Shown piece by piece: positions 4,509-56,288 of a DNA stretch of 64,000 bases (its first letter is position 1; each line of letters starts with the position of its first letter). The notes under the pieces are model-generated. The model was not told the DNA's origin, searched no databases, and saw only the letters and a program-made list of their open reading frames with translations. A program made the position numbers and the translations under genes. The DNA is from a phage: sequence record PZ386971.1, one strand, 5' to 3'.

Positions 4509-4530
4509 ACCCCGCTTCGGCGGGGTTTTA
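4509..4530 (+). terminator. Rho-independent terminator (ccccgcTTCGgcgggg + T-run)
   Basis: Perfect 6-bp GC stem with TTCG loop then TTTT; same hairpin sequence recurs at 12721. Confidence 0.6.
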
Positions 4531-4559
4531 AATTTTTCTAGATTATTTTATTGAATTAC

Positions 4560-4587
4560 TTTACTTCTTCAATAACTCACGTATAAT
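4560..4587 (+). promoter_or_regulatory. Early sigma70-type promoter (-35 TTTACT, 16 bp, -10 TATAAT), cassette A copy 1
   Basis: TTTACTtcttcaataactcacgTATAAT then conserved leader cataagcag..caacttgaaa and AGGAACTATATCATG. Confidence 0.55.
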
Positions 4588-4635
4588 TCTAAACATAAGC
4601 AGTACGACACCAACTTGAAACGAAGGAACTATATC

Positions 4636-12693: not shown

Positions 12694-12720
12694 TCGAATA
12701 GTTGTCCTTAACCCTGACAA

Positions 12721-12742
12721 ACCCCGCTTCGGCGGGGTTTTT
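12721..12742 (+). terminator. Rho-independent terminator after the major capsid gene
   Basis: accccgcTTCGgcggggttttt, identical stem-loop to the one at 4509. Confidence 0.65.
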
Positions 12743-12794
12743 CATTTTGGGGATTCGTTATATGATGTGCCAAACTTAACCGGAGATAACGTGT

Positions 12795-12995
12795 ATGAGC
12801 CTGAAAGAAGATTCTGTAAACACCACAGTCGCCAACTCCACTTTCCGTGAGTGGCACGACGTATTGTGCAAAGTCGCGAAAAGCCAGGGCGGTTCAGCCG
12901 CCGACGCCGACGCCTGGCGTGATGATTACGAAGCAGGCAAGACCCCTCGCCAGTCTTGGGAAGATGAATGGGGTTGGGAAGAACAAGAAGGATAA
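12795..12995 (+). CDS. Small acidic Trp-rich protein (66 aa)
   Basis: ORF with GGAGA SD; C-terminus WEDEWGWEEQEG. Confidence 0.4.
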   Translation: MSLKEDSVNTTVANSTFREWHDVLCKVAKSQGGSAADADAWRDDYEAGKTPRQSWEDEWGWEEQEG

Positions 12996-13055
12996 CAGTT
13001 TTCAATAACGGGGCGAGAGGTATTATTGCCCCGTCTACTATCCGAGGGTTGTGCC

Positions 13056-13280
13056 ATGTACCTGAAAAAGACTGTGAAGAAGCCGAAAGGCGAAGTGATC
13101 GAAGTGTGCCTTATTGAGGCTTATGTTGACTCCTGGAACAATGAGCAGCGCTACTTCATGGTCAACACATTGGTGTATGTGCCAGCCTCTCACCTGAACC
13201 GTGATTTCATCACAACCGAGAACATCGTCCGCTGGGAGATTGCAACGCAGTCCGATATCGACAAACACATCATTCTTTGA
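13056..13280 (+). CDS. Hypothetical small protein (74 aa)
   Basis: ATG with GAGGG SD; track ORF begins at an upstream TTG. Confidence 0.4.
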   Translation: MYLKKTVKKPKGEVIEVCLIEAYVDSWNNEQRYFMVNTLVYVPASHLNRDFITTENIVRWEIATQSDIDKHIIL

Positions 13281-18707: not shown

Positions 18708-20216
18708 ATGGCAGACATCCAGATTGTTAAGGTTAATGAAGTCCGCATGCGTTGCATCGCAGATCTTTCTATCAGGGAAGAACTGAATGACTACTTCAAA
18801 TTCGAAGACCCGAACTTCGTTCCCAACCCCTTCTCTAAATGGGACGGGGTTGTTCGCTTGTTCACCAAGTCATCCGGCCTGATTGATATCGGCCTACTGT
18901 TTGAGGTGTTCAAGTTCTGCAAGAACAACAACTACACCATTGAACTGGATCCGGCTCTGAAGTACATTCAGGACATCCCAGACCAAGAAATCCATGACTT
19001 CATCAACAGTCTGCATCCAAAGATCCGCACCGAAAATCACGAATATATCGATGCCGAGACTCGTGACTACCAGTACGACACCATCGCCAAGGCTATGCGT
19101 CAAACCAGATGCGTCTGTGAACTGGCTACGAGTGCCGGTAAGTCCTTTATTCTGTATGTCATGGCGCGGTACTACAGGCAGCGCAGAGAAGCTCTCGAAA
19201 GTCCTCTGAAGACGCTTATCGTGGTTCCGTCAATTCACCTGGTCACTCAGCTGTACGACAACTTTGAAGAGTACGCACACGGCAGTGATTGGAAGCCCGT
19301 TGTCAACACTCAATTGATCTTTGAGGGCGCGACAAAGGAAATCAGCAAACCAATCGTCATCAGTACATGGCAGGGTATTCAAGACCAGCCGAAGGAATGG
19401 TTCCACCAGTTCGGTGATATCGTGGTGGATGAAGTGCACACCTCCAAGTCTGAGAAACTGTCTTACATCCTAAACAACTGCATCTATGCCGACCAGCGCC
19501 TGGGGGTTACAGGTACGCTGGCGAATACCAAAGTTGCCGGGCTTCAGGTGGTGGCTCACTTCGGGGCGTACCATAAGATCATCACGGCTCGCGATCTTAT
19601 CAATCTCGGGTACGCCACTGACATCAAAGTGAAGATGATTCAGCTGAAGCACACTCCGGCGGATGCTGTTGGTCTAGACGGGGATTATTCCAAGGAAATA
19701 GAATACCTTATCACACACCAGTCCCGCAACGAACTGATCGCCAAGATGGCACTGAATCTGAAAGGAAACGTGGCCATCATGTTCGAACGTATTGATGGTC
19801 ACATGATGGTCGTGTATGATATGCTGAGCGCAGTCAAGCCCAACGTGTTTGTCATCAACGGGGAAGTGAAGATCGAAGACCGCCGCCGCATACAGAAAGC
19901 GATGGAGGATGGAGAGGACATCACCCTGTTGGCATCATACGGGACAATGCAGCAGGGAGTGTCGATCAAGAAGCTACACCACCTTGTACTGGCACACCCG
20001 AGCAAGTCATATATCCGCGTCATACAGACATTGGGTCGTCTGATGCGTCAGCACTCCTCTAAGGACGTCGCGTGGATATGGGACTTAGTGGATGATGCAT
20101 CGTACAACGCCAGCACGAACCACGCTCTTAGGCACTCTCACGAGCGTTACAAGTTTTACCTGGCAGAGCGCCACCCTGTGGAATTCATGAAGGTGGCGCT
20201 GGGTAATCACGATTAA
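18708..20216 (+). CDS. uvsW: UvsW SF2 helicase
   Basis: ELATSAGKS Walker A, DEVH box, QPKEWFHQFG and KKLHHLVLAH match T4 UvsW QPKEWFSQFG and KNLHHVVLAH. Confidence 0.9.
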   Translation: MADIQIVKVNEVRMRCIADLSIREELNDYFKFEDPNFVPNPFSKWDGVVRLFTKSSGLIDIGLLFEVFKFCKNNNYTIELDPALKYIQDIPDQEIHDFINSLHPKIRTENHEYIDAETRDYQYDTIAKAMRQTRCVCELATSAGKSFILYVMARYYRQRREALESPLKTLIVVPSIHLVTQLYDNFEEYAHGSDWKPVVNTQLIFEGATKEISKPIVISTWQGIQDQPKEWFHQFGDIVVDEVHTSKSEKLSYILNNCIYADQRLGVTGTLANTKVAGLQVVAHFGAYHKIITARDLINLGYATDIKVKMIQLKHTPADAVGLDGDYSKEIEYLITHQSRNELIAKMALNLKGNVAIMFERIDGHMMVVYDMLSAVKPNVFVINGEVKIEDRRRIQKAMEDGEDITLLASYGTMQQGVSIKKLHHLVLAHPSKSYIRVIQTLGRLMRQHSSKDVAWIWDLVDDASYNASTNHALRHSHERYKFYLAERHPVEFMKVALGNHD

Positions 20217-20584
20217 TCTTGATTCACATAGGCGGGGGTGGCCTCGCCTTCATCAGATACTACGCCGAACAATTTGTCCAGAGAAGCCAGACATTGTGAG
20301 TTCAGGTGTTCACTGATCGTATCCTTCAGCATTTGTTCGCTGCCCATTTTGAATGGTAGAACCTTCGCTTCGATGCCGTTTTCAAACGTCACAACACCGA
20401 CATACAGACCAACTTTCAGGCCTGTCATCAAGCCAAGAGGGACAAATCGCGGCTCCGATGGTAAGTTCTTGTCTGACGCCAGCTGTGCCAGATAAACTGG
20501 GGTGCCTGTGACAAATTGCCCTGCGGTGAGGATGGCGTCTGGCTTACTGCATCCGACCGCATATAATCCTACGAACTGTTTCAT
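20213..20584 (-). CDS. Hypothetical protein (123 aa)
   Basis: Clean minus-strand ORF convergent with uvsW; AT-rich promoter region upstream. Confidence 0.5.
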   Translation of the reverse strand: MKQFVGLYAVGCSKPDAILTAGQFVTGTPVYLAQLASDKNLPSEPRFVPLGLMTGLKVGLYVGVVTFENGIEAKVLPFKMGSEQMLKDTISEHLNSQCLASLDKLFGVVSDEGEATPAYVNQD

Positions 20585-20768
20585 ATATTACTCTCGTGTG
20601 TTGGTTAACCTGACATACATATTATTTCGCATGCATGTTTAGACCAAATTAAATTAATTTTGCTGTTGAATAAAAAATTGCTTTCCTGTTGAACAATGGC
20701 GTGGTATTATACGAGTTGTGAGTGTTAACGAACAACGAGTATTTGTTTTATGAGCGAAGCGAATAGGA

Positions 20769-20817
20769 TTAATAAAGATTATTATCTTTAATAAAGGTTA
20801 TTATCTTTAATAAAGTC
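20769..20817. repeat. Tandem near-palindromic repeats, 2.5 copies of AATAAAG(A/G)TTATTATCTTT
   Basis: Each unit holds the inverted repeat AAAGAT-TATT-ATCTTT; lies in a 364-bp AT-rich divergent intergenic region. Confidence 0.6.
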
Positions 20818-20838
20818 CATAAATGCCGAAGGCATTTA
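20818..20838. promoter_or_regulatory. Perfect palindrome ATAAATGCC-GAA-GGCATTTAT (hairpin or operator)
   Basis: 9-bp inverted repeat with 3-nt spacer, directly after the tandem repeats. Confidence 0.45.
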
Positions 20839-20948
20839 TTAATAACGCGTAGCGCAATTTGCCACTTGTTCTATAAACAAAACACAGCGATACTAGATTG
20901 CGTCAAACATGACTTGAACCCCCCACTATATTTTGAGGATACATACAA

Positions 20949-21617
20949 ATGCAAGAGATCACTCTCTCCGAACGTACACTTCAGTTGCTGGCCAACTTTG
21001 AGACCATCAACCCATCTATCGTCCTGACACCGGGTAAGATGCTGCGCAGCATTAACGATTCGTCTACTGTTATCGCCGTGGCACAGATCGAAGAAGACTT
21101 CCCGTTTGAGTTCCCTATCCTGGACCTGACCAAACTTCTGGCCATCCAGCGCCTGCCTTCCTTCAAAGGTGGTAAAGCCGAATTCCATCAGGACTACATC
21201 CTGTTGAAAGGCGAAAACTCTCAGCTGCAATTCTGGCGTTCTGCTAAAGAACTCACTGTTGTTCCGGCTGACACCATTGAACTGCCGTCTGTCGACTTTG
21301 AAGCGATCATCACTCCAGAGAAGATGAAAGAACTGACCCGCGCCTGTTCTACCCTCGGACACAAGACTGTGCGCCTGGTTGCTCAGGGTGGCAAAACTCG
21401 CCTGGTTGCAACCACCACTACCCTGGACAACTCCAACAACTACACTGTTGAGCTGGGCGAAACCGCGCTGCCGGACTTCGTAATGCCGCTGGATGTTGCC
21501 AACCTGAAAATGATCGAAGGCAACTACACTCTGCGTGCCTGTGCTGATCTACAGATGGTGAACTTCCAATCATCCGACGCGACGATCAATTACTTCGTCG
21601 GCGCACAGATTGAGTAA
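20949..21617 (+). CDS. 45: Sliding clamp (T4 gp45-like)
   Basis: 222 aa; LLANFETINPSIVL and NLKMIEGNYTL resemble T4 gp45 LLKNFATINSGIML and NMKMQPGNYKL. Confidence 0.85.
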   Translation: MQEITLSERTLQLLANFETINPSIVLTPGKMLRSINDSSTVIAVAQIEEDFPFEFPILDLTKLLAIQRLPSFKGGKAEFHQDYILLKGENSQLQFWRSAKELTVVPADTIELPSVDFEAIITPEKMKELTRACSTLGHKTVRLVAQGGKTRLVATTTTLDNSNNYTVELGETALPDFVMPLDVANLKMIEGNYTLRACADLQMVNFQSSDATINYFVGAQIE

Positions 21618-21646
21618 TCAATCTCCAGCCTGATGCTATAATGTGT

Positions 21647-21670
21647 GGGCGGGGCGTTCCCCGCCTATTT
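21647..21670 (+). terminator. Attenuator or terminator hairpin between gp45 and gp44 genes
   Basis: GGCGGGGcgttCCCCGCC then TATTT; T4 has an analogous hairpin between genes 45 and 44. Confidence 0.5.
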
Positions 21671-21697
21671 GAAATGATTCTTCTACACGAGGCTGAA

Positions 21698-22687
21698 ATG
21701 TCTAATATCACTATCGTTTCCGACCAGTACGCATGGGAAAACAAGTACCGCCCTGACAACCTGGACGAGATTATCATCCCTCAAGACGTCCGCGCTAAAA
21801 TCCATGGCTACATCACCAGCGGCAACGGCAACATCCCGTCTATGCTGTTCTACTCCCCTCAGCCTGGTACTGGCAAGACTACCTCCGCCCTGGCCGTGTG
21901 TAATGAAATCGGTTGTAAGCAACCACTGATGATCAACGCATCCCTGGACAACAGCATCGACGTTATCCGTGACCGCGTGATTCAGTACTCTACTGGTGTG
22001 AGCGTATTCGGTGGTCGCAAAGTCGTTATCCTCGACGAAGTAGAGCGTCTGTCTATGGCGGCACAGGAGTCGCTGAAGGGTATTGTGGAGAAGGTCTCCA
22101 AGAACTGTTCATTCATCCTGACCACCAACGCCAAGCAACGTGTGAACGAACCTCTGCGCTCTCGTTGCCGTGAAATCGACTTTATCTGGAATGAGGCTGA
22201 GGCTGATGAGGTAAAACTTCAGTTCATGCGCCGCTGTGCTGAAATCCTTCGCTGCGAAGGTGTTGAGTATGACCCTCCTGTGTTGGCTGCTATTGTCAAG
22301 CGCCATTTCCCTGATAACCGCCGCATCATGGGTGTTCTACAGGATAACGTCACCACTTACGGCAAGATCGACGAACGTGCACTGGCTGTGTTAAAATCGG
22401 CCGATATGGGCATGTTGGTGAATATGTTGAAGGATAATGACTGGGCTGGGATGAAGCAGTGGGTGACCGACAACCAGAACTATATCACTGAAGACTTCTA
22501 TTCCCGCTTCTTCCAGTTCTGTGTACCACAGGATAAAGAGAAGCAAATGTTGGTTCAGAATGAGTCTATCCCTGATCTGGTATGCGTGTGTGGTCAGTCT
22601 CAGATTGAACACCGTCAGGTCGGCGATGTCTGGCTGCATGCTGTGTATTTCCTGACCAACGTCATGCTCAACATCAAGTGGAAGTGA
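21698..22687 (+). CDS. 44: Clamp loader large subunit (T4 gp44-like AAA+)
   Basis: SPQPGTGKTT Walker A (T4 SPSPGTGKTT), LRSRCREIDF (T4 LQSRCRVITF), C-terminal NIKWK (T4 EMQWK). Confidence 0.9.
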   Translation: MSNITIVSDQYAWENKYRPDNLDEIIIPQDVRAKIHGYITSGNGNIPSMLFYSPQPGTGKTTSALAVCNEIGCKQPLMINASLDNSIDVIRDRVIQYSTGVSVFGGRKVVILDEVERLSMAAQESLKGIVEKVSKNCSFILTTNAKQRVNEPLRSRCREIDFIWNEAEADEVKLQFMRRCAEILRCEGVEYDPPVLAAIVKRHFPDNRRIMGVLQDNVTTYGKIDERALAVLKSADMGMLVNMLKDNDWAGMKQWVTDNQNYITEDFYSRFFQFCVPQDKEKQMLVQNESIPDLVCVCGQSQIEHRQVGDVWLHAVYFLTNVMLNIKWK

Positions 22688-43886: not shown

Positions 43887-46223
43887 ATGACTCAAAGTAC
43901 AGATATCCTGGCCAAATTTGGCAATCTTTTGAAGGAAGCTGACACCCCGGTAGAGGTGGAAGTCCCATTTGAAGTGCGTGATAACGTTACGCACAAACTG
44001 ACTTTCCGCAAAGGTCGCGCCAAGAACTTCCGCTCCATCGGCAATCAGTTCATGGAGATTGATTATCAGCGCAACCCAGCCACCCTTGTCACGTCTGATG
44101 ACAACGGCGCGGGTAAATCCACGATGTTGGTATGGCTGCTGTTCTTCGTACTGTACAACACCACGTACAGTAAGAAGGAGAAGAAGGCAGGCCTGGTTAA
44201 CTCACAAAGCCGCAAGGAATGTGTGGGTGAGGTAGAGTTTGCCTGTCGTGGTAGTGAATGGAAAGTTCGCCGGGGTATCAAGCCCGACTTTGTTGAAGTC
44301 TACCAGATGGTGGACGGTAAGTGGTTGCAGATCGATAACGAAGCAGCCAAGGCCGACATGAACAAGTACATCGTGAACCTCATCGGTGTAGACCAGAAGA
44401 TGTTTGAGAACTCTCTGGTGCTGGGTAAAGAGAAGTTCATTCCGTTTACGGAGATGTACACTGCCGACCGTCGCGCCATGGTGGAGACAATTTGGGACTT
44501 GGGCTTCTTCAGCCTGATGAACGAAGATGTCAAGGCCGCCATCAAAAAGGCAAATACAACTCTGGACTCCATATCTAACGAATGCGCACTGAAGGTTATT
44601 GACCACACCAACAAGAAGACGCAGCTTCAGCAGATCGAGCAATCCAACGCCCTGATCCAACAGCAGTCGGCCGATATCCTTGTACAGCAACAGGAAGCCC
44701 TGAATTCCCTGGATGCTGACATCGCTTCCCAGAACGAAGAGCGCAGCCGCCTCACTGCGGTTGAGTTCGAAGCCACCCAGGAAATGAAGACGGTAGAAAA
44801 CCGCCTGAATGATGAATCCATGGTGGAGATCGAGGCTATCAAGAAAGACTTTGATGCCAAGATCCAGGCGGTGAAGGATGCCGCTCAGGAAAAGGCCGAT
44901 GATTATGAGCGCATCGAAGTGTCTACTGCGGAGCATGAACTTCAGGTCTTGCGTGACCGTGCCTTTACAGTGGCCGAAAGCAAGAACACCCTGCTCACCG
45001 AGCGCAACACAAACCTGGACGCCCTGAACGCTGCTATTCAGCGCCGCCAGCAGGGTGAGAACTTCCGCATCAAGTTCCAGACCGAAATGGACGGACATCA
45101 GTCGGCCATCAAGCGCTTCCACGACATGGGGACTTGCCCTACCTGTACCCAACTGGTGTCTGATGACACCAAGGCGCGGATTGAGAGTGAGTACAATCCT
45201 CAGATCCAGGAACTGCAGTCGAAGTTAGATCAACTAGACAAAGTTACCGCCGATATCAATGTCCTGATCGATGATCACAAGGCTCAGGACGATAAGTTGG
45301 TTGCTGACATTGCTGTGTTGGACACTGAACTGGATGCAATGCGCAAGCAGGCTGACGAAATCGTTGACAACATCAAGCAGCTGCGCCGTGATATTCAAGG
45401 TTTTCATGATGCTGCCACGATTGAGTGTAATTCACTGAACCGTGAATGTCAACAGAAGATCCTTGACATCCGTAAGGCACTGAACGTTCGTTTTGAAGAC
45501 ATCACTGCGTCACTACAACAAACTCGAGAGAATGCCGTCAGCGGGATTAAAGCCGTCGATGATAAGATCGCCGAGCTGAAAGCCCGTCGTGCTCCTCTCG
45601 TGGCGTCTATTGCCGATCTGGAGCGTAAACTGGCTGTACAACCAACGCCTACCGCCGAACTAGAGAACTCTATCGCTGTGTTGGAAGGTGAACTGGAGGA
45701 TCTATACCAGCGCCGCGAGGATGCCGATCAGGAACTCCAGGACTTACAGCACCTCCTGTTCTTCCTGAAGGATGACCAGACCAAGGCGCGTATCATCGCC
45801 CTGTATCTGCCATTCCTCAATAGCAAGATCAACGAGTATCTTGAAGCCCTCAACATGTTCTTGGACATCGTTGTTGACGATACCTTTGAGATCACCATGA
45901 GTGCAGCAGGCCGCAAGGGGCAGAGTATCTTCTCCCTGTCTACTGGCCAGCGGAGCCGCCTGAACCTGGCGGTGACATTAGCTCTGCGTGACGTGGCTAA
46001 CCTCAAGGCATCAGTGCAATGTAACCTGTTTGTCCTGGATGAAATCCTTGAGAACATGAGCGAGCGCGGGGTGCAGGAATCGGTTGAGATGCTGAAGCAT
46101 AAGTTCGGCGGGAACAACCTGTTTGTCATCAGCCAGCGTGAGCAGGAGTTCCAGGAATACTTCCAACACAACATTCGCTACGGCCTACGAAACGGCCTGA
46201 CCGAAGTTATCAAGAAGGATTGA
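43887..46223 (+). CDS. 46: Recombination ATPase subunit (T4 gp46, Rad50-like)
   Basis: N-terminal P-loop DDNGAGKST, long coiled-coil, CPTC zinc hook; start could be ATG 43878 instead. Confidence 0.85.
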   Translation: MTQSTDILAKFGNLLKEADTPVEVEVPFEVRDNVTHKLTFRKGRAKNFRSIGNQFMEIDYQRNPATLVTSDDNGAGKSTMLVWLLFFVLYNTTYSKKEKKAGLVNSQSRKECVGEVEFACRGSEWKVRRGIKPDFVEVYQMVDGKWLQIDNEAAKADMNKYIVNLIGVDQKMFENSLVLGKEKFIPFTEMYTADRRAMVETIWDLGFFSLMNEDVKAAIKKANTTLDSISNECALKVIDHTNKKTQLQQIEQSNALIQQQSADILVQQQEALNSLDADIASQNEERSRLTAVEFEATQEMKTVENRLNDESMVEIEAIKKDFDAKIQAVKDAAQEKADDYERIEVSTAEHELQVLRDRAFTVAESKNTLLTERNTNLDALNAAIQRRQQGENFRIKFQTEMDGHQSAIKRFHDMGTCPTCTQLVSDDTKARIESEYNPQIQELQSKLDQLDKVTADINVLIDDHKAQDDKLVADIAVLDTELDAMRKQADEIVDNIKQLRRDIQGFHDAATIECNSLNRECQQKILDIRKALNVRFEDITASLQQTRENAVSGIKAVDDKIAELKARRAPLVASIADLERKLAVQPTPTAELENSIAVLEGELEDLYQRREDADQELQDLQHLLFFLKDDQTKARIIALYLPFLNSKINEYLEALNMFLDIVVDDTFEITMSAAGRKGQSIFSLSTGQRSRLNLAVTLALRDVANLKASVQCNLFVLDEILENMSERGVQESVEMLKHKFGGNNLFVISQREQEFQEYFQHNIRYGLRNGLTEVIKKD

Positions 46224-49148: not shown

Positions 49149-52133
49149 ATGTCAAAGCCAAGTTTCCTCCAGTTCATGCAGGAAAGAGATCAGTTGGACG
49201 AAGCGTTCAACTCCGCTCCGTATGAGCTGACCATGGGTAAGAAGAACGCAGGCGATGTGTTCTTCACCTTCGTCGACGAAGATGATAAGGAATACCGCAT
49301 TCAGTTCTATACTCCTCAGGGACTGGGCAAGAGCGTTCGTCAGGTTTTCATCGGCCAGAAGCGCGGCTCCGTCTATCCTGACGCCATCGCTCGCTTCAAG
49401 AACCCAATGCGCGTTATTGCTTCCATGATCGAAGCGACCAAACAATTCATGGCGACTCCTCTGGGCAAAACTATCGATGGCTATGCTGTCAACTTCTCGA
49501 AGAAAGCGCTGGATCGCGGTATGACCCTGATTCCTAAGATCATCCGCCAGTCCGGTCTGAAGCAGAAACTGAATGTCATGGACCTGACCTACGCGCCTGT
49601 CCCTGACCGTGGTTATGTGTGGCTAGTTCGTAAGGGCAAAGATCCGGCTCAGGTATTCGACGGTCCGAAGATGCAGGGTATCACCTGGGATGATCCAGAC
49701 AAGGTCGGTGACGTTCCGGTTCAGAACAATACTCCGGATGTGGGTGTGTCATCTTCTGTTGATAATTCCAACGGATGGAAATTAACTTCAAACGGGGATC
49801 AGCCCATGTTGATATGGGCTGGTAAGGAGAGAGGCCGCACGAATACGGCAAATATCGCTCCCCACTACAATGAGCCGGGCGTGTATGTTGGCGCATACAT
49901 GAATGAGAAACCTGTGCGTGGGCAAAGTGCTGATTTCATTGCTCGTCAGTTGAAATTACCACAAGTCCCTATCAGTATCCTGAATGATTTCACCACGGCG
50001 TCCACAAAATTTTGGAAAGGTTCTCAACAGAAATCTGCGCCTGTTGTGCCGGCAGGTTCGGACAGAAATAACCCAGCCAACATTATCGGTTCTGGAACTG
50101 CTGTTATTGATGCCAAACGGCTTGGTGCTCAGGAAGTAAACGTGGAACGATTCAAAAACGGCGTTCGCATGCGTTCTCGAAACGGTGACGTCGACATCAG
50201 TATTTCTGACCCAGACTTTTCAAATGCAGCAAGTGCGGCTGATGCTGCCACAGCCTCTGTTGTGGTCAAGAACGGGCGTTACGAAGGTGCCATCAATTCA
50301 AAGCGCAAGATTGCCCGCACCTCGAACGAGCAGGGTACTGAATGGGATATTATCGGCGTCAACGGGGAAATCCTTGTCTCTATCAAGTTGAACAAAGTGT
50401 CTAAATCCACATCAGATTCGACCGAGGGTGCAACCAGTGTTGATCAATTACGTGACAGCGGTTTCATCGCTCGTGTTCTGGGTATCATTGATACCAACGT
50501 TGGGCTGGACACTTCTATTCTTCCTGGTGAAAACATCCGTCGCGTGGGCGCTGGTCGTTACACGACGACAGGCGGGTTGGTTATCGTTGTCAACTTCACA
50601 AACGTCCTCGCTGGTTTCGTTCAATACTCAGTTTTCAGCGAAATTGCTGAAGAGGAGAACGTGGCCAAAGGTAGCGCCCGTGACGTCGCCAAGGCGGTAA
50701 TTGCGTCCATCTTTGAGGTTGCTAAGACCCAGTACACTGGCAAATGGGAAATTAGCGCAGTGCCAACAAGCGCTCCATATCCTATCAAAGCCATTCGCCG
50801 TTCTCGGGGCTGGGGTTATGTGGAAACCGCAAACTGGACTCTGACAGTGTCCGACGCTGTCCTGAATCGTGTGAAGCCAGGGAACACTGCTCTGCTGGAA
50901 CTCATCAAAGAGCCTCCGCGTGGCAAGCACCTGCTGGAAATCATCCCAGAGAAGGGCGACAAGACCCTGATGCTGAAAGATCGTATTACCGGGGCCATCT
51001 ATGGTTCTATCGACCTGAATGCCCAAGGCGCTGATCTGGTCAACTCTGGAACCCTGAAGATACCAAGCAACGCCATGGTGTTTGGTGAGACTGTCAACGG
51101 TATGTCCATTCGGTGGGATGTCAATTTCCCCGAAACGGGAAAATACGCCGGTACTTCTATGATAACCAACGTGACCTATTACTACGACAAAGGTAAAGTT
51201 GCATTCACCCCAATTGTCTCTCAGAAAGGGCGTACCCTGAACAATCCGAAGACATATGAACTTCCTTTAAACAAAGATATGGTCCAGAGTGTGATTGATG
51301 AGATTTCATCAAAAATGGTATATCTTTCCAGAAACCTCCAACAGTTGAAAAGTCAGTCATACAACCCAAACCAGGTGTTCTTGAACGATATAACCATCAC
51401 GGATAAAGGTGAAGTGATTTGGAATGATTACAACTTGTCTGACGGCAAAGTTACACAAATTATGCTGTCCATGATAAGCGCAGAAAATAAACGCCTGGAG
51501 AAAGTAGCAAACACGCCGGATATCAATATCACATTGCCCAAGAAACAAGCTGAAGTGGTAGAATTTATAAACCGGATGATCGACATCGATCTCACCCCTT
51601 ATGTGAGAACCCCCAAAAAACGTGATGTGGTATTATTTGACTCTTCTGAATTGTCGATAAACCAACTCAACAACATAGAACGCCTGGGAAGAGAAACAGG
51701 AAAATGGTCTCTTCAGCCAAACGGTGGTATGGGTCATGCACTACTTCTGAAAAGCACGTCGCACAATCCGAAGGACGACCTTGCGGCATACGCCGACTCC
51801 ATTCGCGACAACGCACCAAAAGGTCGCGACCTGGATTGGCAGATCTATGCAAGCCGTGATGGTCAGACTCTGAACGTGGACTGGGATATCACCTTCCGCC
51901 GCAACACAACTGAAGGGGCATATCGCGAGTTCAAAGCTCAGATTGACCGCGCCAACCAGTACCTGCAGACACTGTACCGGGATGCGAAGTCCAAGGGTTA
52001 CAACCCGACTGAACCAAACCTGATGACTCTGGCTCGCGCCCAGCAGTCTGACCAGTGGTCACAAGACAACGGGGAAAGCGCATACAGCGAGTACGAGCAG
52101 TCCCTGGGTGGCAACATGCAGATTAAGATCTGA
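49149..52133 (+). CDS. Large hypothetical protein (994 aa)
   Basis: Long uninterrupted ORF with GGAGA SD; Asn/Gly/Ser/Thr-rich; no polymerase or ATPase motifs found. Confidence 0.6.
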   Translation: MSKPSFLQFMQERDQLDEAFNSAPYELTMGKKNAGDVFFTFVDEDDKEYRIQFYTPQGLGKSVRQVFIGQKRGSVYPDAIARFKNPMRVIASMIEATKQFMATPLGKTIDGYAVNFSKKALDRGMTLIPKIIRQSGLKQKLNVMDLTYAPVPDRGYVWLVRKGKDPAQVFDGPKMQGITWDDPDKVGDVPVQNNTPDVGVSSSVDNSNGWKLTSNGDQPMLIWAGKERGRTNTANIAPHYNEPGVYVGAYMNEKPVRGQSADFIARQLKLPQVPISILNDFTTASTKFWKGSQQKSAPVVPAGSDRNNPANIIGSGTAVIDAKRLGAQEVNVERFKNGVRMRSRNGDVDISISDPDFSNAASAADAATASVVVKNGRYEGAINSKRKIARTSNEQGTEWDIIGVNGEILVSIKLNKVSKSTSDSTEGATSVDQLRDSGFIARVLGIIDTNVGLDTSILPGENIRRVGAGRYTTTGGLVIVVNFTNVLAGFVQYSVFSEIAEEENVAKGSARDVAKAVIASIFEVAKTQYTGKWEISAVPTSAPYPIKAIRRSRGWGYVETANWTLTVSDAVLNRVKPGNTALLELIKEPPRGKHLLEIIPEKGDKTLMLKDRITGAIYGSIDLNAQGADLVNSGTLKIPSNAMVFGETVNGMSIRWDVNFPETGKYAGTSMITNVTYYYDKGKVAFTPIVSQKGRTLNNPKTYELPLNKDMVQSVIDEISSKMVYLSRNLQQLKSQSYNPNQVFLNDITITDKGEVIWNDYNLSDGKVTQIMLSMISAENKRLEKVANTPDINITLPKKQAEVVEFINRMIDIDLTPYVRTPKKRDVVLFDSSELSINQLNNIERLGRETGKWSLQPNGGMGHALLLKSTSHNPKDDLAAYADSIRDNAPKGRDLDWQIYASRDGQTLNVDWDITFRRNTTEGAYREFKAQIDRANQYLQTLYRDAKSKGYNPTEPNLMTLARAQQSDQWSQDNGESAYSEYEQSLGGNMQIKI

Positions 52134-52189
52134 TCATTGAAAGCCCCTTCGGGGGCTTATAAATAACTGAAATCCCCGAGGAGATTAAG

Positions 52190-52759
52190 ATGAAACCGTT
52201 TATCGAATATTTTAAAGAACAAGCCGCTAAACCTCAGACCCATGCTGGTGTCCAGGGTAAGACCGTATCCATCACCAAGCAAGCTGACGGCACCCAGTGG
52301 TGTTCCGGCGCTACCGTGACCCAGATCACCCCTGACAATCAGGCGGATGTCTACAACCTGGAGTTAACCAACGGCAACACTATCAAGGTGAAGCTGACTC
52401 CGGATCAGACCCATGGCATTACCCAAGGCCAGGAAGTTGTTGCTGTCCATGACGGTTTCGAATTCTTCTTTGGCAAGTCTGCCGACAAAGGCCAGGTGAC
52501 CGAATCCTATGCTCAGGAACTGGCGAACATGGACAAGATGATCGGTAAAGCACTGGGTGCTGGCAAGTCTCGCAAGAGTGGTCGTACTGAGTTTGAATAC
52601 TCTGGCATCCCTGGCATCGGCAAGGCGATCACCGTGAACTTCGGTGGTGAAGATGACCCGTATGTGATCGTCACCTGCAACGGCAAGGAGCATGATATCA
52701 GCAAGGGTAAAAACCTGGCTGCTGACATTGCCAAGTTCCTCGGTGTTAAGCCTGTCTAG
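52190..52759 (+). CDS. Hypothetical protein (189 aa)
   Basis: ORF with GAGGAG SD. Confidence 0.5.
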   Translation: MKPFIEYFKEQAAKPQTHAGVQGKTVSITKQADGTQWCSGATVTQITPDNQADVYNLELTNGNTIKVKLTPDQTHGITQGQEVVAVHDGFEFFFGKSADKGQVTESYAQELANMDKMIGKALGAGKSRKSGRTEFEYSGIPGIGKAITVNFGGEDDPYVIVTCNGKEHDISKGKNLAADIAKFLGVKPV

Positions 52760-52852
52760 AAGGTTGCACTAGACGACGCCACGGCGAAAGAACTTGGTCT
52801 GTAACTGGATCCCCCTAAATACAGGGGGATTTCTTTTTCTGAGGACAACATC

Positions 52853-53206
52853 ATGGTCAACGCTAGTATTTTCATCAACCGTGGATTGCTTGCTATAGCC
52901 CACTCTCATGCCTTACACTTCGTTACAACGTCCTATGCCAAGCACAAGGCACTCGGGGAGTTCTACGGGGAACTGGAGGACTTACTAGACACGTTTACCG
53001 AAGCATACATCGGCGCGGGTGGTCAGTATGTTCCATCATTCGAGAATATCAAATTGTACAATCCTGATCCGATATCGTATATCAACAGCGTAATCATCGA
53101 CGTCAATGGGATCTACAATCAATGTGACAGCCATTTACAAAACACGCTTGACGAAATCAAAACTCTGTGCTATCAAACGATTTACAAACTGAAGCAACTG
53201 GCGTAG
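52853..53206 (+). CDS. Hypothetical protein (117 aa)
   Basis: Preceded by ccccc-TAAATACA-ggggg hairpin carrying the late-like motif. Confidence 0.45.
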   Translation: MVNASIFINRGLLAIAHSHALHFVTTSYAKHKALGEFYGELEDLLDTFTEAYIGAGGQYVPSFENIKLYNPDPISYINSVIIDVNGIYNQCDSHLQNTLDEIKTLCYQTIYKLKQLA

Positions 53207-53267
53207 TCTATAGATCTATCTGATAATATAATTGCCCATTATTTGTCAATCATAGATAAGGATAAAG

Positions 53268-53876
53268 ATGGGCAAGATCTTCGTTCCAACACATTTAGAA
53301 GGCTGTCAAATTGCAGCCAAATATCTTCACAAGCAGATGAATTGCGGTGCCGTATTTATCGAACCGAATCCTCACACCAATTCTGAATCCCCTGATGCAA
53401 TCGGGTTTCGCCCCGATGGGTGCAGTATTTTGATCGAGGTCAAAATCAGCCGGGATGATTTCCGAGCAGATGCTAAGAAACCTCATCGCATCAATCCTGA
53501 GCAGGGGATGGGCAGCTATCGTTTTTATGCATGTCCTGAGGGAGTCATCCGCATTGAAGATCTACCACCAAAGTGGGGGTTGTTCTACTTCACGCCTCGA
53601 AAATCATTGAAGGCGATCCATGTCCCCGACATGAAGATATCTTCCCTGTATTCCCCTCAGCACTATCTGAATATGATAGCCTGCCGAGGCCAGAATGGCA
53701 AGATGCCTCCTTATCTCCTCCATTACCAAAAGATGGTGGAAGACTTCGGCCATGTCGTAAAGAACACCGTCGCTGAACACAATGTCCTCTATGGGGCTTG
53801 GCGTCAGCTCTGTATTGCTCAAACCCGTGGTGTGGCATATACTGTCAATGAGGTATTCCAGAGGCCCGCGATTTAA
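53268..53876 (+). CDS. Putative PD-(D/E)XK-fold nuclease (202 aa)
   Basis: ESPDAIGFRPDGCSILIEVKISRDD contains a PD...(E)xK arrangement. Confidence 0.4.
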   Translation: MGKIFVPTHLEGCQIAAKYLHKQMNCGAVFIEPNPHTNSESPDAIGFRPDGCSILIEVKISRDDFRADAKKPHRINPEQGMGSYRFYACPEGVIRIEDLPPKWGLFYFTPRKSLKAIHVPDMKISSLYSPQHYLNMIACRGQNGKMPPYLLHYQKMVEDFGHVVKNTVAEHNVLYGAWRQLCIAQTRGVAYTVNEVFQRPAI

Positions 53877-53886
53877 GAGGTGTACT

Positions 53887-54171
53887 ATGTCATTAGCAGC
53901 ATACAACAAAGAATTTTCAGAAATAAATTATGACTTCTTGTTTGCGAGTGAGCGCCGATTTGTACAGGCGAATGAATATTTGGAAAACCACGGTATGGAA
54001 TCCAGATATGAAAATATATTGAACATGCAAGCGGCCATGGCGACGACTGAACTTGGGGCTGACAGTTATGAAGCCAAAGCATATTCTCGTCTTACCCATT
54101 ATGATCAGACCATGGTAGAAAAATATAAATCTATCCTTTCTCAGAACGGGTGGGTAAATGAAATTTCTTGA
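53887..54171 (+). CDS. Hypothetical small protein (94 aa)
   Basis: ATG 53887 with AGAGGTG SD; track ORF begins upstream. Confidence 0.4.
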   Translation: MSLAAYNKEFSEINYDFLFASERRFVQANEYLENHGMESRYENILNMQAAMATTELGADSYEAKAYSRLTHYDQTMVEKYKSILSQNGWVNEIS

Positions 54172-55219
54172 CGAACAATTCATAAATTACGTTGCTCCCA
54201 GACTCGATAAATTCAAGTGGGAACGTGTTGGGTCTGTCGCAAATTTTAGATGCCCACTTTGTGGAGATTCTCTCAAAAGTGCTAACAAGCGACGCGGTTA
54301 TTTTTTCTTCGATCGAGATAATGATTGCTTTCGGTTTAAATGTCATAATTGCCATAACATGAGTGGCTGGGCGTTTGAGTTCTGGTTGAAGAAGTTTGAT
54401 GAACGCTTGTCCACCGAGTACAACATGGAGAAGTTCCGTCTGCTGGGTGATTCATCTTCCAAGCCGCTCCCGGCGCTGAAGCCTTTGCCAAAGCTGACAC
54501 AGTCAGCCCGTATCGGTTCAATGGAGGCTAAACGCGACGAGAGCCTCCTCGGCAATATGCTCCGACTTGATCTGCTACCGCCCAACCATAAGGCTCGGCA
54601 GTACGTACAGGGCAGGGGAATGCCGGAGAGCACGTTGCCCCTCCTGTATTACACCCAACACTTCCGCCAGGATCTACTCCAGTTCGAAACGAACCCCGAG
54701 AAGCAGCTGAAAATCCCCGATGACGAACGGCTGGTGATTCCATTCTGGACGCAAGACGGGCGTATGAAGATCGTCCAGGGGCGTGCATTTGAAGTGCGTG
54801 ATGGGATACTGCGGTACTCTACTGTCAAGCCGCGCGATGAAGACACTAAGGTCTATGGTGAAGACCGGGTGAACATTCACAAGACCAAGCTGGTTGTGGA
54901 AGGTCCGATTGACAGCCTATTCCTACCCAACTGTCTTGCATCGGCCGACGCTGATCTACTGAGTGTGAAGGGCGACATCTATATCCCCGACAACCAGTAC
55001 CGGAACCCGCAGGTGTGTGACGGTATCCAGAAGATGATAGATAAAGGTGTCAAGGTTGTACTGTTCCCACCAGACGTTCCTTGGAAGGATATCAACGACA
55101 TGGTCATGCCATCAAAGGGCAACATGTCCATACAAGACCTCCTGAAGCTGATCGCCAAGAACGTTTACCAGGGTATGGCCGCATCATTACAATTCGCAGA
55201 ACTGAGGAAAGTACGATGA
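54158..55219 (+). CDS. 61: DNA primase (T4 gp61-like, zinc ribbon + TOPRIM)
   Basis: FRCPLCGDS...FKCHNCH zinc-binding region; VVEGPIDSLF TOPRIM acidic motif. Confidence 0.7.
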   Translation: MKFLDEQFINYVAPRLDKFKWERVGSVANFRCPLCGDSLKSANKRRGYFFFDRDNDCFRFKCHNCHNMSGWAFEFWLKKFDERLSTEYNMEKFRLLGDSSSKPLPALKPLPKLTQSARIGSMEAKRDESLLGNMLRLDLLPPNHKARQYVQGRGMPESTLPLLYYTQHFRQDLLQFETNPEKQLKIPDDERLVIPFWTQDGRMKIVQGRAFEVRDGILRYSTVKPRDEDTKVYGEDRVNIHKTKLVVEGPIDSLFLPNCLASADADLLSVKGDIYIPDNQYRNPQVCDGIQKMIDKGVKVVLFPPDVPWKDINDMVMPSKGNMSIQDLLKLIAKNVYQGMAASLQFAELRKVR

Positions 55220-55422
55220 CGTTAGAAGAACTGAACAAACTGGACGACGGAGAGATCTTGCGGGGGTACTTGAAATCTCGTGAGGGATATGTCCTATCTG
55301 GGGAAGAGTCTCCGAGTTTCATCCACGGCTGGAAGAATGGTCAGGCGGACTTCCATGGGGTTCCCATCAGTGATGAGCAGGCCGAATTGGCTCGCGAGTT
55401 TGTAAGATTTCGCCCGAACTAA
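55216..55422 (+). CDS. Hypothetical small protein (68 aa)
   Basis: ATG overlapping the primase stop. Confidence 0.4.
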   Translation: MTLEELNKLDDGEILRGYLKSREGYVLSGEESPSFIHGWKNGQADFHGVPISDEQAELAREFVRFRPN

Positions 55423-55450
55423 AACTTTTTAATTCACATTACTTCCCTCC

Positions 55451-55476
55451 AGGCCTCATTCGACGAGGCCTTTTAA
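55451..55476 (+). terminator. Rho-independent terminator
   Basis: aggcctcATTCGACgaggcct then TTTT. Confidence 0.6.
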
Positions 55477-55516
55477 AATACTTCAAAAATAATTTTAAAA
55501 AATTATTGAAAAAGAC

Positions 55517-55548
55517 TTTACTCTTCAATAATAGCGCACTATTATAAT
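55517..55548 (+). promoter_or_regulatory. Strong early promoter with AT-rich upstream element (-35 TTTACT, 17 bp, -10 TATTATAAT)
   Basis: aaaataattttaaaaaattattgaaaaagaCTTTACTcttcaataatagcgcacTATTATAAT. Confidence 0.5.
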
Positions 55549-55617
55549 CACATAGGGCGGCAACACACCGCCGAATGAAAAGTGAAACGAACCAACTACA
55601 TTATGAGGAATTACATC

Positions 55618-56106: not shown

Positions 56107-56252
56107 TCCAGACGTGTAACATAGGGGAGGCAACTCCCCCTATCAGGTCTTGGGAGGAGATCACAGTCATTCAATCCTCTTTGGTGCTCTCTGGGTTGCT
56201 GACACATCCAGAACAAAGTCTCCCCCAGCTCCTCGAGTAGTTCACTTTCACT

Positions 56253-56262: not shown

Positions 56263-56288
56263 CTGCATTCATTGTGGAGGTATTTCTT

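Follow-up and report, generated by a model that had tools for sequence, protein, structure and literature searches.

Strand-specific hairpins and a copy-number-variable repeat in the divergent region upstream of the gp45 clamp gene of Ackermannviridae phages

The window, i.e. the whole 64-kb stretch of DNA analyzed, belongs to an Agtrevirus-like phage of the Ackermannviridae. Phages of this family (ViI, CBA120, LIMEstone and relatives) are widely used in therapy and biocontrol; to our knowledge, neither a transcript map nor an origin has been described for them. A 364-bp gap separates the CAT start of a minus-strand ORF of 123 aa (20213-20584) from the ATG of the gp45 clamp gene (20949). Its GC content is 32.7% vs. 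49.5% for the whole window. Genes nearby (uvsY, uvsW, clamp, loader) are replication and recombination genes, and a regA homologue lies three genes 3' of gp45 in the same cluster. The gap had been singled out from the letters alone, in what is called here the sequence-only reading, as AT-rich, divergent and non-coding, which is borne out. Its description as the longest non-coding stretch stands within what was checked: the homologous gap of RPN242, the closest annotated relative, spans 361 bp and is the largest between annotated genes in the surrounding 50 kb, and the window's second apparent gap (12694-13276) contains small ORFs that are annotated as genes in RPN242. No ORF of at least 20 aa inside the gap is common to phage ViI. 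A small conserved ORF was rejected: Mooltan annotates one of 38 aa, the window has no counterpart, and indels are not multiples of three. The features of the gap are the following.

20585-20948, no strand: divergent intergenic region of 364 bp, a non-coding gap
20619-20647, minus strand: candidate sigma-70-type promoter of the 123-aa gene, -35 TTGGTC (20647-20642), 17-nt spacer, -10 TAATAT (20624-20619), proposed from sequence and alignments
20648-20681, no strand: AT-rich stretch between the divergent promoters, with the A-tract AAAAAA, of which AAAAA is invariant
20682-20710, plus strand: candidate upstream promoter, -35-like TTTCCT (20682-20687), invariant TGTTGAAC (20687-20694), extended -10 TGG-TATTAT (20702-20710)
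20712-20739, plus strand: hairpin H1, C-GA-GUUGU-GA-GU[GUUA]AC-GA-ACAAC-GA-G, with two tandem G.A/A.G steps (RNAalifold, 19 distinct sequences)
20750-20764, plus strand: hairpin H2, A-U-GA-GC[GAA]GC-GA-A-U, with a GCGNAGC mini-hairpin sequence; GAGCGAAGCGA is nearly invariant
20769-20815, no strand: 2.5 tandem copies of the 19-nt unit TTAATAAAGRTTATTATCT, with a weak AT hairpin in every unit (Tandem Repeats Finder)
20819-20846, plus strand: terminator-like, possibly bidirectional hairpin ATAAATGCC-GAA-GGCATTTAT (20819-20839), perfect 9-bp arms, with a U-rich tail
20866-20894, plus strand: candidate proximal gp45 promoter, -35 TTGTTC (20866-20871), 17-nt spacer, -10 GATACT (20889-20894)
20924-20951, plus strand: putative late-promoter-like CACTATATT (20924-20932), Shine-Dalgarno GAGGA (20935-20939) and gp45 ATG (20949-20951)

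Judging from the alignments, the gap outside the repeat is strongly constrained, being as conserved as the adjoining clamp gene. Identity to phage ViI is 77.5% in the gap, 77.3% in the clamp CDS, 53.8% at third codon positions of the clamp and 55.3% in the 123-aa gene; the corresponding figures for Menlow are 75.2%, 75.3%, 49.3% and 50.4%. The gap is alignable in 273 phage records from four genera, its core in Miltonvirus as well (clamp 52% identical), and about 55 nt of the core are near-invariant. All five genera feature the same layout, a -10-like TAnTAT at the 5' side and a hairpin with a U-rich tail at the 3' side, even where the sequence of the hairpin differs. The conserved blocks may be read as three promoter-like pairs and two plus-strand hairpins. 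An exact-pattern scan of IMG/VR found matches in Ackermannviridae only. The metagenome scan added two Agtrevirus contigs; three other metagenome matches were discarded as unrelated (L048, simple sequence; L049, archaeal; L052, high-GC coding). A literature search for Ackermannviridae transcript or sRNA data, or for a ViI-like replication origin, found none.

Folding of the core with RNAalifold over 19 distinct sequences gave H1 and H2 with 98.1% of the cells paired, two pairs being changed on both sides (9 cells). The covariation score was reached in none of 500 shuffles, and slid controls were 13-51% paired; the score has to be read bearing in mind that independent events are few and the sequences closely related. 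As the inner pair of H1, 4 sequences have U-A and 15 have C-G, RPN242 (GCGTTAGC, 97.5% identical) being among the latter, the partner of U20719 is A or G, and both arms of Miltonvirus H1 are longer together. The closing pair of H2 is intact in every sequence, U-A in the 5 from Aglimvirinae and C-G in the 14 from the other three genera. H1 loops are GUUA, UUU, GAA or GGA. H2 fits the GCGNAGC/GCGNNAGC pattern in 18 of the 19 distinct sequences, N being A, or T in phages May and IME250; the sole exception is L018 (GCAAAGC). H1 is GCGAAGC or GCGGAGC in Miltonvirus and GCGTTAGC in RPN242 and L013, the UUU loop of Kuttervirus and Taipeivirus H1 being the other departure from the mini-hairpin type.

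H1 and H2 are not equivalent on the two strands. On the opposite strand the G.A pairs, and the U.G pair found in 14 of the 19 sequences, would become C.T and A.C. Folded as RNA, the interval 20712-20766 yields -13.4 kcal/mol (z -2.8) on the plus vs. -3.4 (z -1.1) on the minus strand, and the interval 20713-20846 yields -34.1 (z -5.2) vs. -20.1 (z -3.6). With standard DNA parameters the core is at -3.7 kcal/mol (z -1.0), G.A pairs and mini-hairpins being outside that model. Compensatory change, strand asymmetry and free loops, the marks of a structured single-stranded element, are all found in H1 and H2, with few independent events. The core is read here as plus-strand single-stranded nucleic acid, most likely RNA, and H1 and H2 as undescribed strand-specific hairpins of a non-coding region of Ackermannviridae. 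Rfam 15, searched at a permissive threshold, gave a best score of 13.9 bits in the clamp-locus gap, vs. a gathering score of 34.7. A loose window scan for Y-GA-stem-loop-stem-GA-R was uninformative (45 matches vs. about 29 in shuffles).

The H2 motif is found, with the same flanks, also 5' of the baseplate-hub gene gp5. There it lies within a conserved leader, about 150 nt 3' of a candidate promoter (CTTTCTT...TGCTATAAT). The gp5 leader has further compensatory hairpins (GCCC/GGGC, GCCU/AGGC and GUCU/AGAC; GGAAGC/GCTTCC and GGATGC/GCATCC). Over both loci seven loop variants were counted, GAA, GUA, GGA, UUU and GUUA, plus UUCA and AAC at the gp5 locus, with stems and G.A steps fixed. The best Rfam 15 score at this locus was 22.4 bits at the permissive threshold, vs. 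a gathering score of 35. Two known elements were considered for the gp5 locus and rejected. A hammerhead ribozyme (UGAUGA-GC-GAA-GC-GAA) would require C3, G5 and A14, which other genera do not conserve at the clamp or the gp5 locus, and finds no support in Rfam; an RfaH ops element (GGCGGT...) is mismatched at positions 7-8 and its sequence is unconserved in ViI.

The 19-nt repeat follows a different pattern. Tandem Repeats Finder placed it at 20769-20815 (period 19, 2.5 copies, 96% matches), with a score of 87, the top array score in the window; the 2.5 copies of the sequence-only reading are thus confirmed. That each unit is an inverted repeat is correct inasmuch as AAAGAT-TATT-ATCTTT is inside each full unit, the second unit having one G-T mismatch. 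The number of copies in 46 Aglimvirinae records is 1.5 in 38, 2.5 in 7 and 3.5 in phage A221, and varies among phages 96-100% identical over the remaining segment. The repeat, less conserved than any other part of the gap, is missing from Kuttervirus, Taipeivirus and Miltonvirus, which keep the flanks and carry different AT-rich palindromes instead. The ancestral form features TTAATAAAG twice, 10 nt apart, a substrate for slippage. On these comparisons the element is best described as a young, copy-number-variable slippage repeat, unremarkable in itself and of possible use in typing Agtrevirus-like phages.

The sequence-only reading had taken the palindromic 19-mers as an operator array for a dimeric regulator, or as iterons of an initiator-dependent origin. 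This is very improbable. It may draw on the inverted repeat in every unit, on a 19-bp spacing close to two helical turns, on the 12-nt iterons of T4 oriE (PMC3016281) and on a 9-bp array of about 14 copies 5' of the clamp gene of the distant Vibrio phage VPALA. Against it, most phages have a single full unit, near-identical phages differ in copy number, the sequence is kept only within Aglimvirinae while flanking blocks are kept beyond, the palindrome differs in sequence in every genus, and the unit has no other occurrence in the window. An iteron origin calls for at least three direct repeats that related phages share in both number and sequence, and an operator array for conserved palindromic half-sites and a regulator gene nearby; neither set was found at 20585-20948. 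No candidate initiator protein for the repeats was found. The 123-aa neighbour was considered as a regulator and rejected: it has no Pfam family and no PDB sequence match, its PHROG is of unknown function, its predicted structure (pLDDT 81) matches no helix-turn-helix or other DNA-binding or nucleic-acid-binding fold, and it diverges fast (41% identity with the Kuttervirus homologue). Of the regulatory interpretation first given to the gap, a functional divergent control region is supported, while the role assigned to the repeats is not.

Promoter-like pairs may account for other conserved blocks. At the minus-strand site GTTTAGACCAA is invariant in four genera, and TAWTAT is found at the same 17-nt distance in Kuttervirus and Taipeivirus; a consensus scan missed this promoter because its -35 matches at 3 of 6 positions only. 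At the upstream plus-strand site all five genera have TAnTAT in the same position, invariably one base 5' of the CGAG of H1, and Miltonvirus has TTGGAC-N17-TACTAT. In the proximal gp45 pair CACTTGTTCTATA and GCGATACTA are invariant in four genera, the spacer varying in sequence and fixed in length; the match to the sigma-70 consensus is weak (7/12), and phiMAM1 has TTGTCA-N16-TATAAT at the aligned place. CACTATAT(T/C)TTGAGGATA, near the gp45 start, is also invariant in four genera. The window has 10 occurrences of CACTAAATA with no more than one mismatch, always on the plus strand and mostly directly 5' of gene starts; CACTATATT at 20924 fits this motif with two mismatches. The consensus scan called no plus-strand promoter in the gap, and all promoter matches are weak relative to the sigma-70 consensus. 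TTGAAC...TATTATAC was also considered as a sigma-32, sigma-E or sigma-54 site and rejected for its spacing or its -10, and TGTTGAAC, CTTGTTCTATAA and GTTTAGACCAAAT were discarded as recurrent phage motifs, their other matches being in coding sequence or at chance level.

Two T4-type assignments were not upheld. TTGCTTT is present at 20678-20684, slightly off the position first given (about 20676), and is not supported as a MotA box. The T4 MotA box lies about 11-13 bp 5' of the sigma-70 -10 hexamer; here TGCTT ends (20682) 21 bp before the sole -10-like hexamer, TATTAT (20705-20710), and the sequence changes to GTCCTTT in Taipeivirus and TCGCTTT in Kuttervirus. MotA and AsiA are not among the names in the RPN242 annotation (record positions 50001-58119 excluded). 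In T4 middle promoters the MotA box, with its TGCTT core, is in the -30 region (PMC3016281). TATAAACA, reported near 20866, is present at 20872-20879 and matches the T4-type late promoter TATAAATA, an 8-nt element placed at about -10, at 7 of 8 positions, but is not conserved as a motif: only the first four or five bases are kept, relatives having TATAAGCA, TATAACTG/TATAACTA or TATATCCC, and it sits in the spacer of the better-conserved proximal pair.

The perfect palindrome noticed earlier is real (9+3+9) and maps to 20819-20839, one base to the right of the 20818-20838 first given. Agtrevirus, Limestonevirus and Kuttervirus all keep it, and its loop varies from GAA to GUCA. Miltonvirus has at its place a different GC hairpin plus CTTTATTT, and Taipeivirus an AT palindrome only, with the GC stem missing. 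The consensus scan called a terminator on the minus strand only (20839-20819). On the plus strand the stem has 3 G-C and 6 A-U pairs, the tail UUUAUUAAU overlaps the stem and the U-tract is interrupted; better U-tails are found in Kuttervirus and Miltonvirus.

Taken together, the gap may be a compact divergent control region with a short structured plus-strand transcript ending at the 20819-20839 hairpin and a slippage-prone AU-rich spacer, a proposal to which we assign a little less than an even chance. It builds directly on the conservation, the strand-specific hairpins with compensatory changes, the second copy and the repeat polymorphism; all the promoters, the transcript, its termination and any binding factor are putative additions. 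Leftward, the sigma-70-type TTGGTC-N17-TAATAT promoter would serve the 123-aa gene. Rightward, the upstream promoter (UP-like A/T tract, TGG-TATTAT) would start a short non-coding transcript carrying one or two small Y-GA-GC-loop-GC-GA-R hairpins (H1, H2), followed by an AU-rich spacer with a weak hairpin, and the GC-cored hairpin with its U-rich tail would halt much of the transcription. gp45 itself would be driven by the TTGTTC-N17-GATACT pair and the late-type CACTATATT. The G.A hairpin module could be a recognition or stability element common to the gp45 region and the gp5 leader, bound by a phage or host factor, or protecting or processing the RNA. The 19-nt repeat would be a by-product of replication slippage between the two TTAATAAAG copies, from 1.5 to 2.5 units here and to 3.5 in A221, its expansion being tolerated because the spacer would be constrained only in base composition and hairpin potential.

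Several observations speak against a transcript: the promoter matches are weak, the plus-strand terminator stem has only three G-C pairs and is missing in Taipeivirus, and no Rfam family is matched. Moreover, if TAnTAT is the -10, transcription would start at about 20716-20718, inside the 5' arm of H1, and the outer H1 stem would be unable to form in the RNA. This stem is invariant, and co-extended in Miltonvirus, which a DNA-level fold or an earlier start fits better than a start at 20716-20718.

A DNA-level fold is at the heart of a transcription-primed origin of the T4 oriF/oriG type, the chief rival reading, possible but rather unlikely. A promoter would fire into an A+T-rich unwinding element (20764-20846), and the transcript, annealed in an R-loop, would prime the leading strand; the displaced plus strand would fold as H1 and H2 GCGNAGC/GCGNNAGC mini-hairpins, keeping the loop open or marking a loading site for helicase or primase, and the gp5 copy would be a second origin. 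The resemblance to oriF and oriG lies in features other than repeats, a candidate promoter and then the least stable duplex. The conserved TAnTAT with its upstream A/T tract, although a weak match to consensus, adjoins the hairpins, and the overlap of H1 with the expected start fits a fold of the non-template DNA strand. Among 80-bp duplexes of the window and of the RPN242 sequence (taken without record positions 50001-60000), the interval 20764-20843 ranks jointly as the least stable, at -85.9 kcal/mol vs. a mean of -112.5 (sd 5.7), 4.7 sd below; two other intergenic spots of the window, at 55470 and 4525, are almost as unstable. The A+T-rich block is constant in composition, not in sequence, across genera, the neighbours are replication and recombination genes, and the most active T4 origins lie at transcription divergence (PMC3016281). 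Mini-hairpins are reported at priming sites (PMC13037366), and Vibrio phage D508, the clamp of which is 35% identical, carries GATTGC-GAA-GCAATC and GAGC-GGA-GCGT by an extreme AT tract 5' of its clamp gene. GC skew, tried as an origin signal, is however flat, with no inflection at 20585-20948, the folding of the core with DNA parameters is poor as far as these model it, and the gp5 motif is not followed by a comparable A+T block. T4-type R-loop formation needs no specific sequence (PMC3016281), so that the near-invariance of about 55 nt is not accounted for. In a more specific version, which is quite improbable, the Y-GA-GC-loop-GC-GA-R hairpin, with its tandem sheared G.A pairs, would be an undescribed family-wide element of Ackermannviridae, in two copies at the clamp locus and again at gp5, and would work on the non-template DNA strand displaced in an R-loop near a promoter. 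If true, these would be the first sequence-specified replication origins in a T4-related phage, with mini-hairpin DNA as the loading signal for helicase or primase.

It is also unlikely that the gap is an ordinary one with no additional non-coding role, in which early, middle and late promoters overlap one another and regulator sites serving gp45 and the 123-aa gene, H1 and H2, as 5'-leader hairpins, would only stabilize or process a long gp45 mRNA, and the palindrome would be a bidirectional insulating terminator. The three promoter-like pairs, with invariant hexamers, fixed spacing and variable spacer, are in keeping with this, as are the minus-strand terminator call and the regA homologue in the cluster; T4 gene 45, with several promoter classes and RegA translational control, is a precedent. 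Still, some 55 near-invariant nt with compensatory pairs exceed the needs of promoters, and the presence of this hairpin module in the gp5 leader too, where its flanks co-vary, suggests a specific recognition element common to both sites. Published promoter annotations of these phages, from T4-style searches for middle and late consensus sequences, do not account for the conservation of the gap. The roughly 55 nt are a precise target, which could reveal either a novel RNA element through which the phage controls its replication and baseplate genes or the replication origins of the family.

The 19-nt repeat resembles ordinary VNTRs in its perfect head-to-tail units, in the pre-existing 9-nt direct repeat flanking them and in whole-unit differences among near-identical genomes, and no difference from VNTRs is in evidence. 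Its common feature with T4 oriE, the iterons of which are of unproven function, is the presence of short direct repeats in non-coding DNA of a T4-related phage (PMC3016281). The oriE iterons, in contrast, form a cluster of 12-nt repeats at even spacing, which related phages keep in syntenic regions; the repeat of the gap had one full unit in its ancestral state and lacks conservation across genera. T4 oriF (uvsY) and oriG (gene 34) share with the gap a promoter, in the gap a candidate one, directly 5' of an A+T-rich, easily melted block of which the composition, not the sequence, is kept, and a local transcription divergence among replication and recombination genes. Unlike the gap, they use MotA-dependent middle promoters, whose spacing is absent here, and neither share nor need a sequence, whereas about 55 nt are nearly invariant and structured here.

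The mini-hairpins GCGAAAGC, GCGTTAGC, CCGAAGG and GCGGAGC are reported at the priming sites of G4, St-1/alpha3 and RSF1010 and in the N4 hairpin promoters (PMC13037366). GCGAAGC in H2, with its variants GCGTAGC and GCGGAGC, is alike to those of the G4 and St-1/alpha3 origins, RSF1010 ssiA and N4 promoters; H1 of RPN242 and L013 carries the exact sequence cited for St-1/alpha3 (PMC13037366). As in those systems, variation in H1 and H2 is confined to the N positions of the loop. Those systems belong, however, to ssDNA phages, to plasmids or to a phage that has a hairpin-specific polymerase of its own. We know of none of their enzymes in Ackermannviridae. Here, moreover, the mini-hairpin is always set within flanking tandem G.A steps, and the H1 loop UUU, found in Kuttervirus and Taipeivirus, falls outside the GNA type.

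The boxB elements of lambda nutL and nutR, and HK022 putL and putR, are leader RNA hairpins in two copies, 3' of early promoters and 5' of terminators. They have no sequence similarity to H1 and H2, no N-like or Q-like protein was identified, and the present phage is T4-like and lytic; boxB is recognized via its loop, whereas in H1 and H2 the loop is free and the G.A stem fixed. By analogy, what the lambda and HK022 systems and the present one may have in common is a small conserved hairpin module in two leaders, each between a promoter-like element and a terminator-like hairpin.

The divergent intergenic region between a minus-strand 123-aa gene and the clamp gene gp45 (20585-20948, hereafter the gap) is 77.5% identical to its counterpart in phage ViI, and 75.2% in Menlow. 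The corresponding values are 77.3% and 75.3% for the clamp gene, 53.8% and 49.3% for its third codon positions, and 55.3% and 50.4% for the adjacent 123-aa gene. The gap was found in 273 phage records, and parts of it are recognisable in Serratia phage phiMAM1, although the clamp protein is just 52% identical. Outside a 19-nt tandem repeat the gap is under strong constraint. Its GC content is 32.7% (vs. 49.5% for the window), its counterpart in Escherichia phage vB_EcoM-RPN242 is the largest space between annotated genes in the surrounding 50 kb, and no ORF of 20 aa or more inside it is common to the window and ViI.

Over a 2.5-kb segment around the gap, identity to the window is 97.5% in RPN242, the closest annotated relative, and 96% in Shigella phage Ag3 (Ackermannviridae, Aglimvirinae, Agtrevirus); Limestonevirus, Kuttervirus, and Taipeivirus phages match at lower identity. 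Genes run in the order gp3, uvsY, exonuclease, uvsW helicase, the 123-aa hypothetical gene (opposite strand), gap, gp45 clamp, gp44, gp62, regA. The surroundings of the locus are polymorphic by mobile elements. Among relatives of window 19500-22000, phages YX22, PC3, PH4, SW16-7, and SP-9-14 carry ~650 bp extra with a hypothetical ORF, and in Dickeya phages the I-LimI endonuclease splits uvsW; beside the major capsid gene, RPN242 has a homing endonuclease that the window (12694-13276) lacks.

The block 20712-20765 (the core) is nearly invariant, CGAG-rich, and holds two hairpins, H1 and H2:

20712-20739, plus strand: H1, C-GA-GUUGU-GA-GU[GUUA]AC-GA-ACAAC-GA-G
20750-20764, plus strand: H2, A-U-GA-GC[GAA]GC-GA-A-U

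In both, tandem G.A/A.G steps in the context CGAG/GAGC break the Watson-Crick stems. Both were recovered unaided by RNAalifold from 19 distinct sequences, 98.1% of the cells being paired, with changes on both sides at two pairs, the H1 inner pair (C-G in 15/19, U-A in 4/19 sequences) and the H2 closing pair (C-G in 14/19, U-A in 5/19). One more pair varies on a single side (U-G in 14/19, U-A in 5/19). The unpaired cells are just four, at two pairs in two Miltonvirus sequences, and are attributed to MAFFT misalignment of the longer Miltonvirus H1, both arms of which are extended in step. The covariation score was reached by 0/500 shuffles, and slid registers were 13-51% paired. The H1 inner-pair change separates even the window (GTGTTAAC) from RPN242 (GCGTTAGC), while loops are freely variable (GUUA, UUU, GAA, GGA, GUA). 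The folding energy of the core is -13.4 kcal/mol (z -2.8) on the plus and -3.4 (z -1.1) on the minus strand, because G.A and U.G pairs would turn into C.T and A.C on the latter. This asymmetry excludes both a double-stranded operator and a symmetric cruciform for the core; the structure is one of the plus strand, as RNA or unpaired DNA.

A third mini-hairpin of the GCGNAGC type (GCGTAGC) is found at 20846-20854 (CGCGTAGCG), right after a terminator-like hairpin, and is partly kept elsewhere (GCGTAGG in Kuttervirus, CGCGAAGAG in Taipeivirus). In the 157-kb Vibrio phage D508 (L045, 2240-2345), the clamp gene is preceded by an extreme AT tract and, after it, GATTGC-GAA-GCAATC and GAGC-GGA-GCGT, mini-hairpins of the H2 type in a region otherwise not alignable with the window.

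Intergenic matches to YGAGC-N3-5-GCGAR in RPN242 (positions 50001-60000 left out) reside only at the clamp locus (H1, H2) and at position 45134, inside a 363-bp gap (44898-45260) upstream of gp5, baseplate hub and tail lysozyme. The two loci have 20 identical bases in common, ATGAGCGAAGCGAATAGGAT, in inverted orientation and ~44 kb apart; the second copy maps ~1.4 kb past the window end (position 64000). The gp5 gap is conserved across the family, the motif reading CGAGC-UUCA-GCGAG-UAGAA in ViI and CGAGC-AAC-GCGAG-UUGAA in Magnus, and the closing pair and 3' flank are those of the clamp locus, genus by genus. It is made up of a terminator, a TGCTATAAT promoter, and a ~200-nt structured leader with compensatory hairpins, which folds with z -2.1 on the plus vs. 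-0.7 on the minus strand. The motif lies ~150 nt downstream of the promoter, and is followed by GGAAGC-AGA-GCTTCC (GGATGC-TGAC-GCATCC in Magnus). A metagenome contig (CYGL01000298.1; L050, 1500-1700) tracks the window to 20776 and continues with gp5-locus sequence in reverse genome order, the switch falling exactly at the common 20-mer; L051, its sister contig from that sample, is collinear. Either L050 is a chimera of the assembly, or the inverted copies have been the ends of a real inversion.

Promoter blocks were inferred from the alignments; each candidate is a weak match to the sigma-70 consensus, and the consensus scanner called none of them:

20647-20642 and 20624-20619, minus strand: candidate promoter, TTGGTC, 17 nt, TAATAT; hexamers and spacing kept in three genera
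20702-20710, plus strand: TGG-TATTAT of the candidate upstream promoter, preceded by an A/T tract and invariant TGTTGAAC
20866-20871 and 20889-20894, plus strand: candidate proximal gp45 promoter, TTGTTC, 17 nt, GATACT; hexamers invariant
20924-20932, plus strand: late-type element CACTATATT, directly before the Shine-Dalgarno GAGGA, resembling CACTAAATA

The upstream plus-strand hexamer is TAnTAT in 5/5 genera, always one base before the H1 block. The spacer of the candidate gp45 promoter is variable in sequence and fixed in length, and TTGTCA-N16-TATAAT is aligned with this promoter in phiMAM1. CACTAAATA (up to one mismatch) occurs 10 times in the window, invariably on the plus strand and in most cases 20-90 nt ahead of a gene start, and looks like the late-promoter consensus of this phage, rather than the T4 TATAAATA. 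Sites are found, for example, at 2213, 6848, 7450, 10389, 24512, 46992, and 52813; genes downstream include those for tail tube and portal, and the one that follows the prohead protease.

All features listed in the sequence-only reading, gap bounds included, were found. The tandem repeat (20769-20815, period 19, 2.5 copies, score 87) is the top array in the window according to Tandem Repeats Finder. The inverted repeat AAAGAT-TATT-ATCTTT is present in each full unit, with one G-T mismatch in unit 2, and the perfect palindrome lies at 20819-20839, one base from where it had been placed. TTGCTTT resides at 20678-20684, but its interpretation as a MotA box fails on spacing (21 bp to the -10) and conservation (GTCCTTT in Taipeivirus). 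TATAAACA is present at 20872-20879, but falls inside the spacer of the candidate gp45 promoter, and only its first 4-5 bases are conserved.

The proposal that the tandem repeats form an operator or iteron array did not survive comparison. In alignments of four, then five genera, Ag3 and LIMEstone1 lack the extra 19-nt unit and feature TTAATAAAG-RTTATTATCT-TTAATAAAG (1.5 copies), and the sequence at this position in Kuttervirus, Taipeivirus, and Miltonvirus is AT-rich but unrelated. Searching all phage records with 20740-20850 returned 46 Aglimvirinae records, 38 with matches 19 nt shorter than the window (1.5 copies), 7 of the same length (2.5 copies), and one, phage A221, 19 nt longer (3.5 copies on reading its sequence). 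Conservation within the gap is lowest at the repeat, which rules out a conserved array of operators or iterons. It is a young, variable-number repeat, the ancestral 9-nt direct repeat of which is an obvious substrate for slippage; the 19-nt repeat is ordinary. In Vibrio phage VPALA, a distant relative (L058, 1-130; clamp 36% identical), the non-coding sequence preceding the clamp gene holds the 9-nt CTCCAAACA ~14 times in tandem, where the circular record has its arbitrary start.

The 123-aa protein (20213-20584, minus strand) is ~41% identical to its Kuttervirus homologue, and its middle portion diverges fast. It has no Pfam family, no PDB sequence relative, and a PHROG match of unknown function. 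By prediction (pLDDT 81) its fold is alpha/beta and matches only ATP-grasp sub-domains, weakly; no feature of the protein points to a regulator. The N-terminus MKQFVGLYAVG and the acidic C-terminal tail EGEATPAYVNQDQS are invariant, the latter directly preceded by a SLDKLFG/SLDFLFG-like motif; this end resembles the clamp-binding tails of T4 proteins. One source labels a homologue 'clamp loader subunit'.

The element has no Rfam family match, and in the literature searched no description was found of it, nor of an Ackermannviridae transcript or origin map; published annotations of these phages are based on consensus searches. As a new non-coding element, of a general kind already known, the conserved G.A-hairpin module is credible. 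That it is a leader or small RNA with a terminator is put forward tentatively, at somewhat less than an even chance: in all genera the core is preceded by a promoter-like element and followed by a hairpin and U-rich tail, though the hairpin sequence differs, and at the gp5 locus the motif is well within the leader. That the gap is a plain promoter and terminator region is unlikely, and an operator or iteron array, which would have to rely on a poorly conserved repeat of variable copy number, is highly improbable.

An R-loop or ssDNA origin of replication is possible, if rather unlikely. In favour of DNA, H1 starts one base past the -10-like hexamer, and a normal start near 20716-20718 would cut the 5' arm from the RNA; this arm nonetheless does not vary, and in Miltonvirus it is lengthened together with its partner. 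Also in favour, the hairpin cores follow the pattern GCGNAGC/GCGNNAGC, that of unusually stable DNA mini-hairpins, which a 2026 review (PMC13037366) lists for the priming sites of G4 (GCGAAAGC), St-1 and alpha3 (GCGTTAGC), and RSF1010 ssiA, and, as GCGGAGC, for N4 hairpin promoters. Likewise, of all 80-bp duplexes in the window and RPN242 sequence examined, the segment following the hairpins (20764-20843) is jointly the least stable. Against an origin, other intergenic spots are nearly as unstable, GC skew is flat, and T4-type R-loops require no particular sequence (PMC3016281). A+T-rich intergenic duplexes at 55470-55550 and 4525-4605 have calculated energies of -85.9 and -87.1 kcal/mol, the former with short imperfect tandem repeats (55471-55513). 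T4 oriF and oriG consist of a promoter and an A+T-rich unwinding element, where the transcript forms an R-loop, and origin R-loops are unwound by UvsW (PMC3016281); here a candidate promoter precedes an unstable A+T block, and the uvsW gene is close by.
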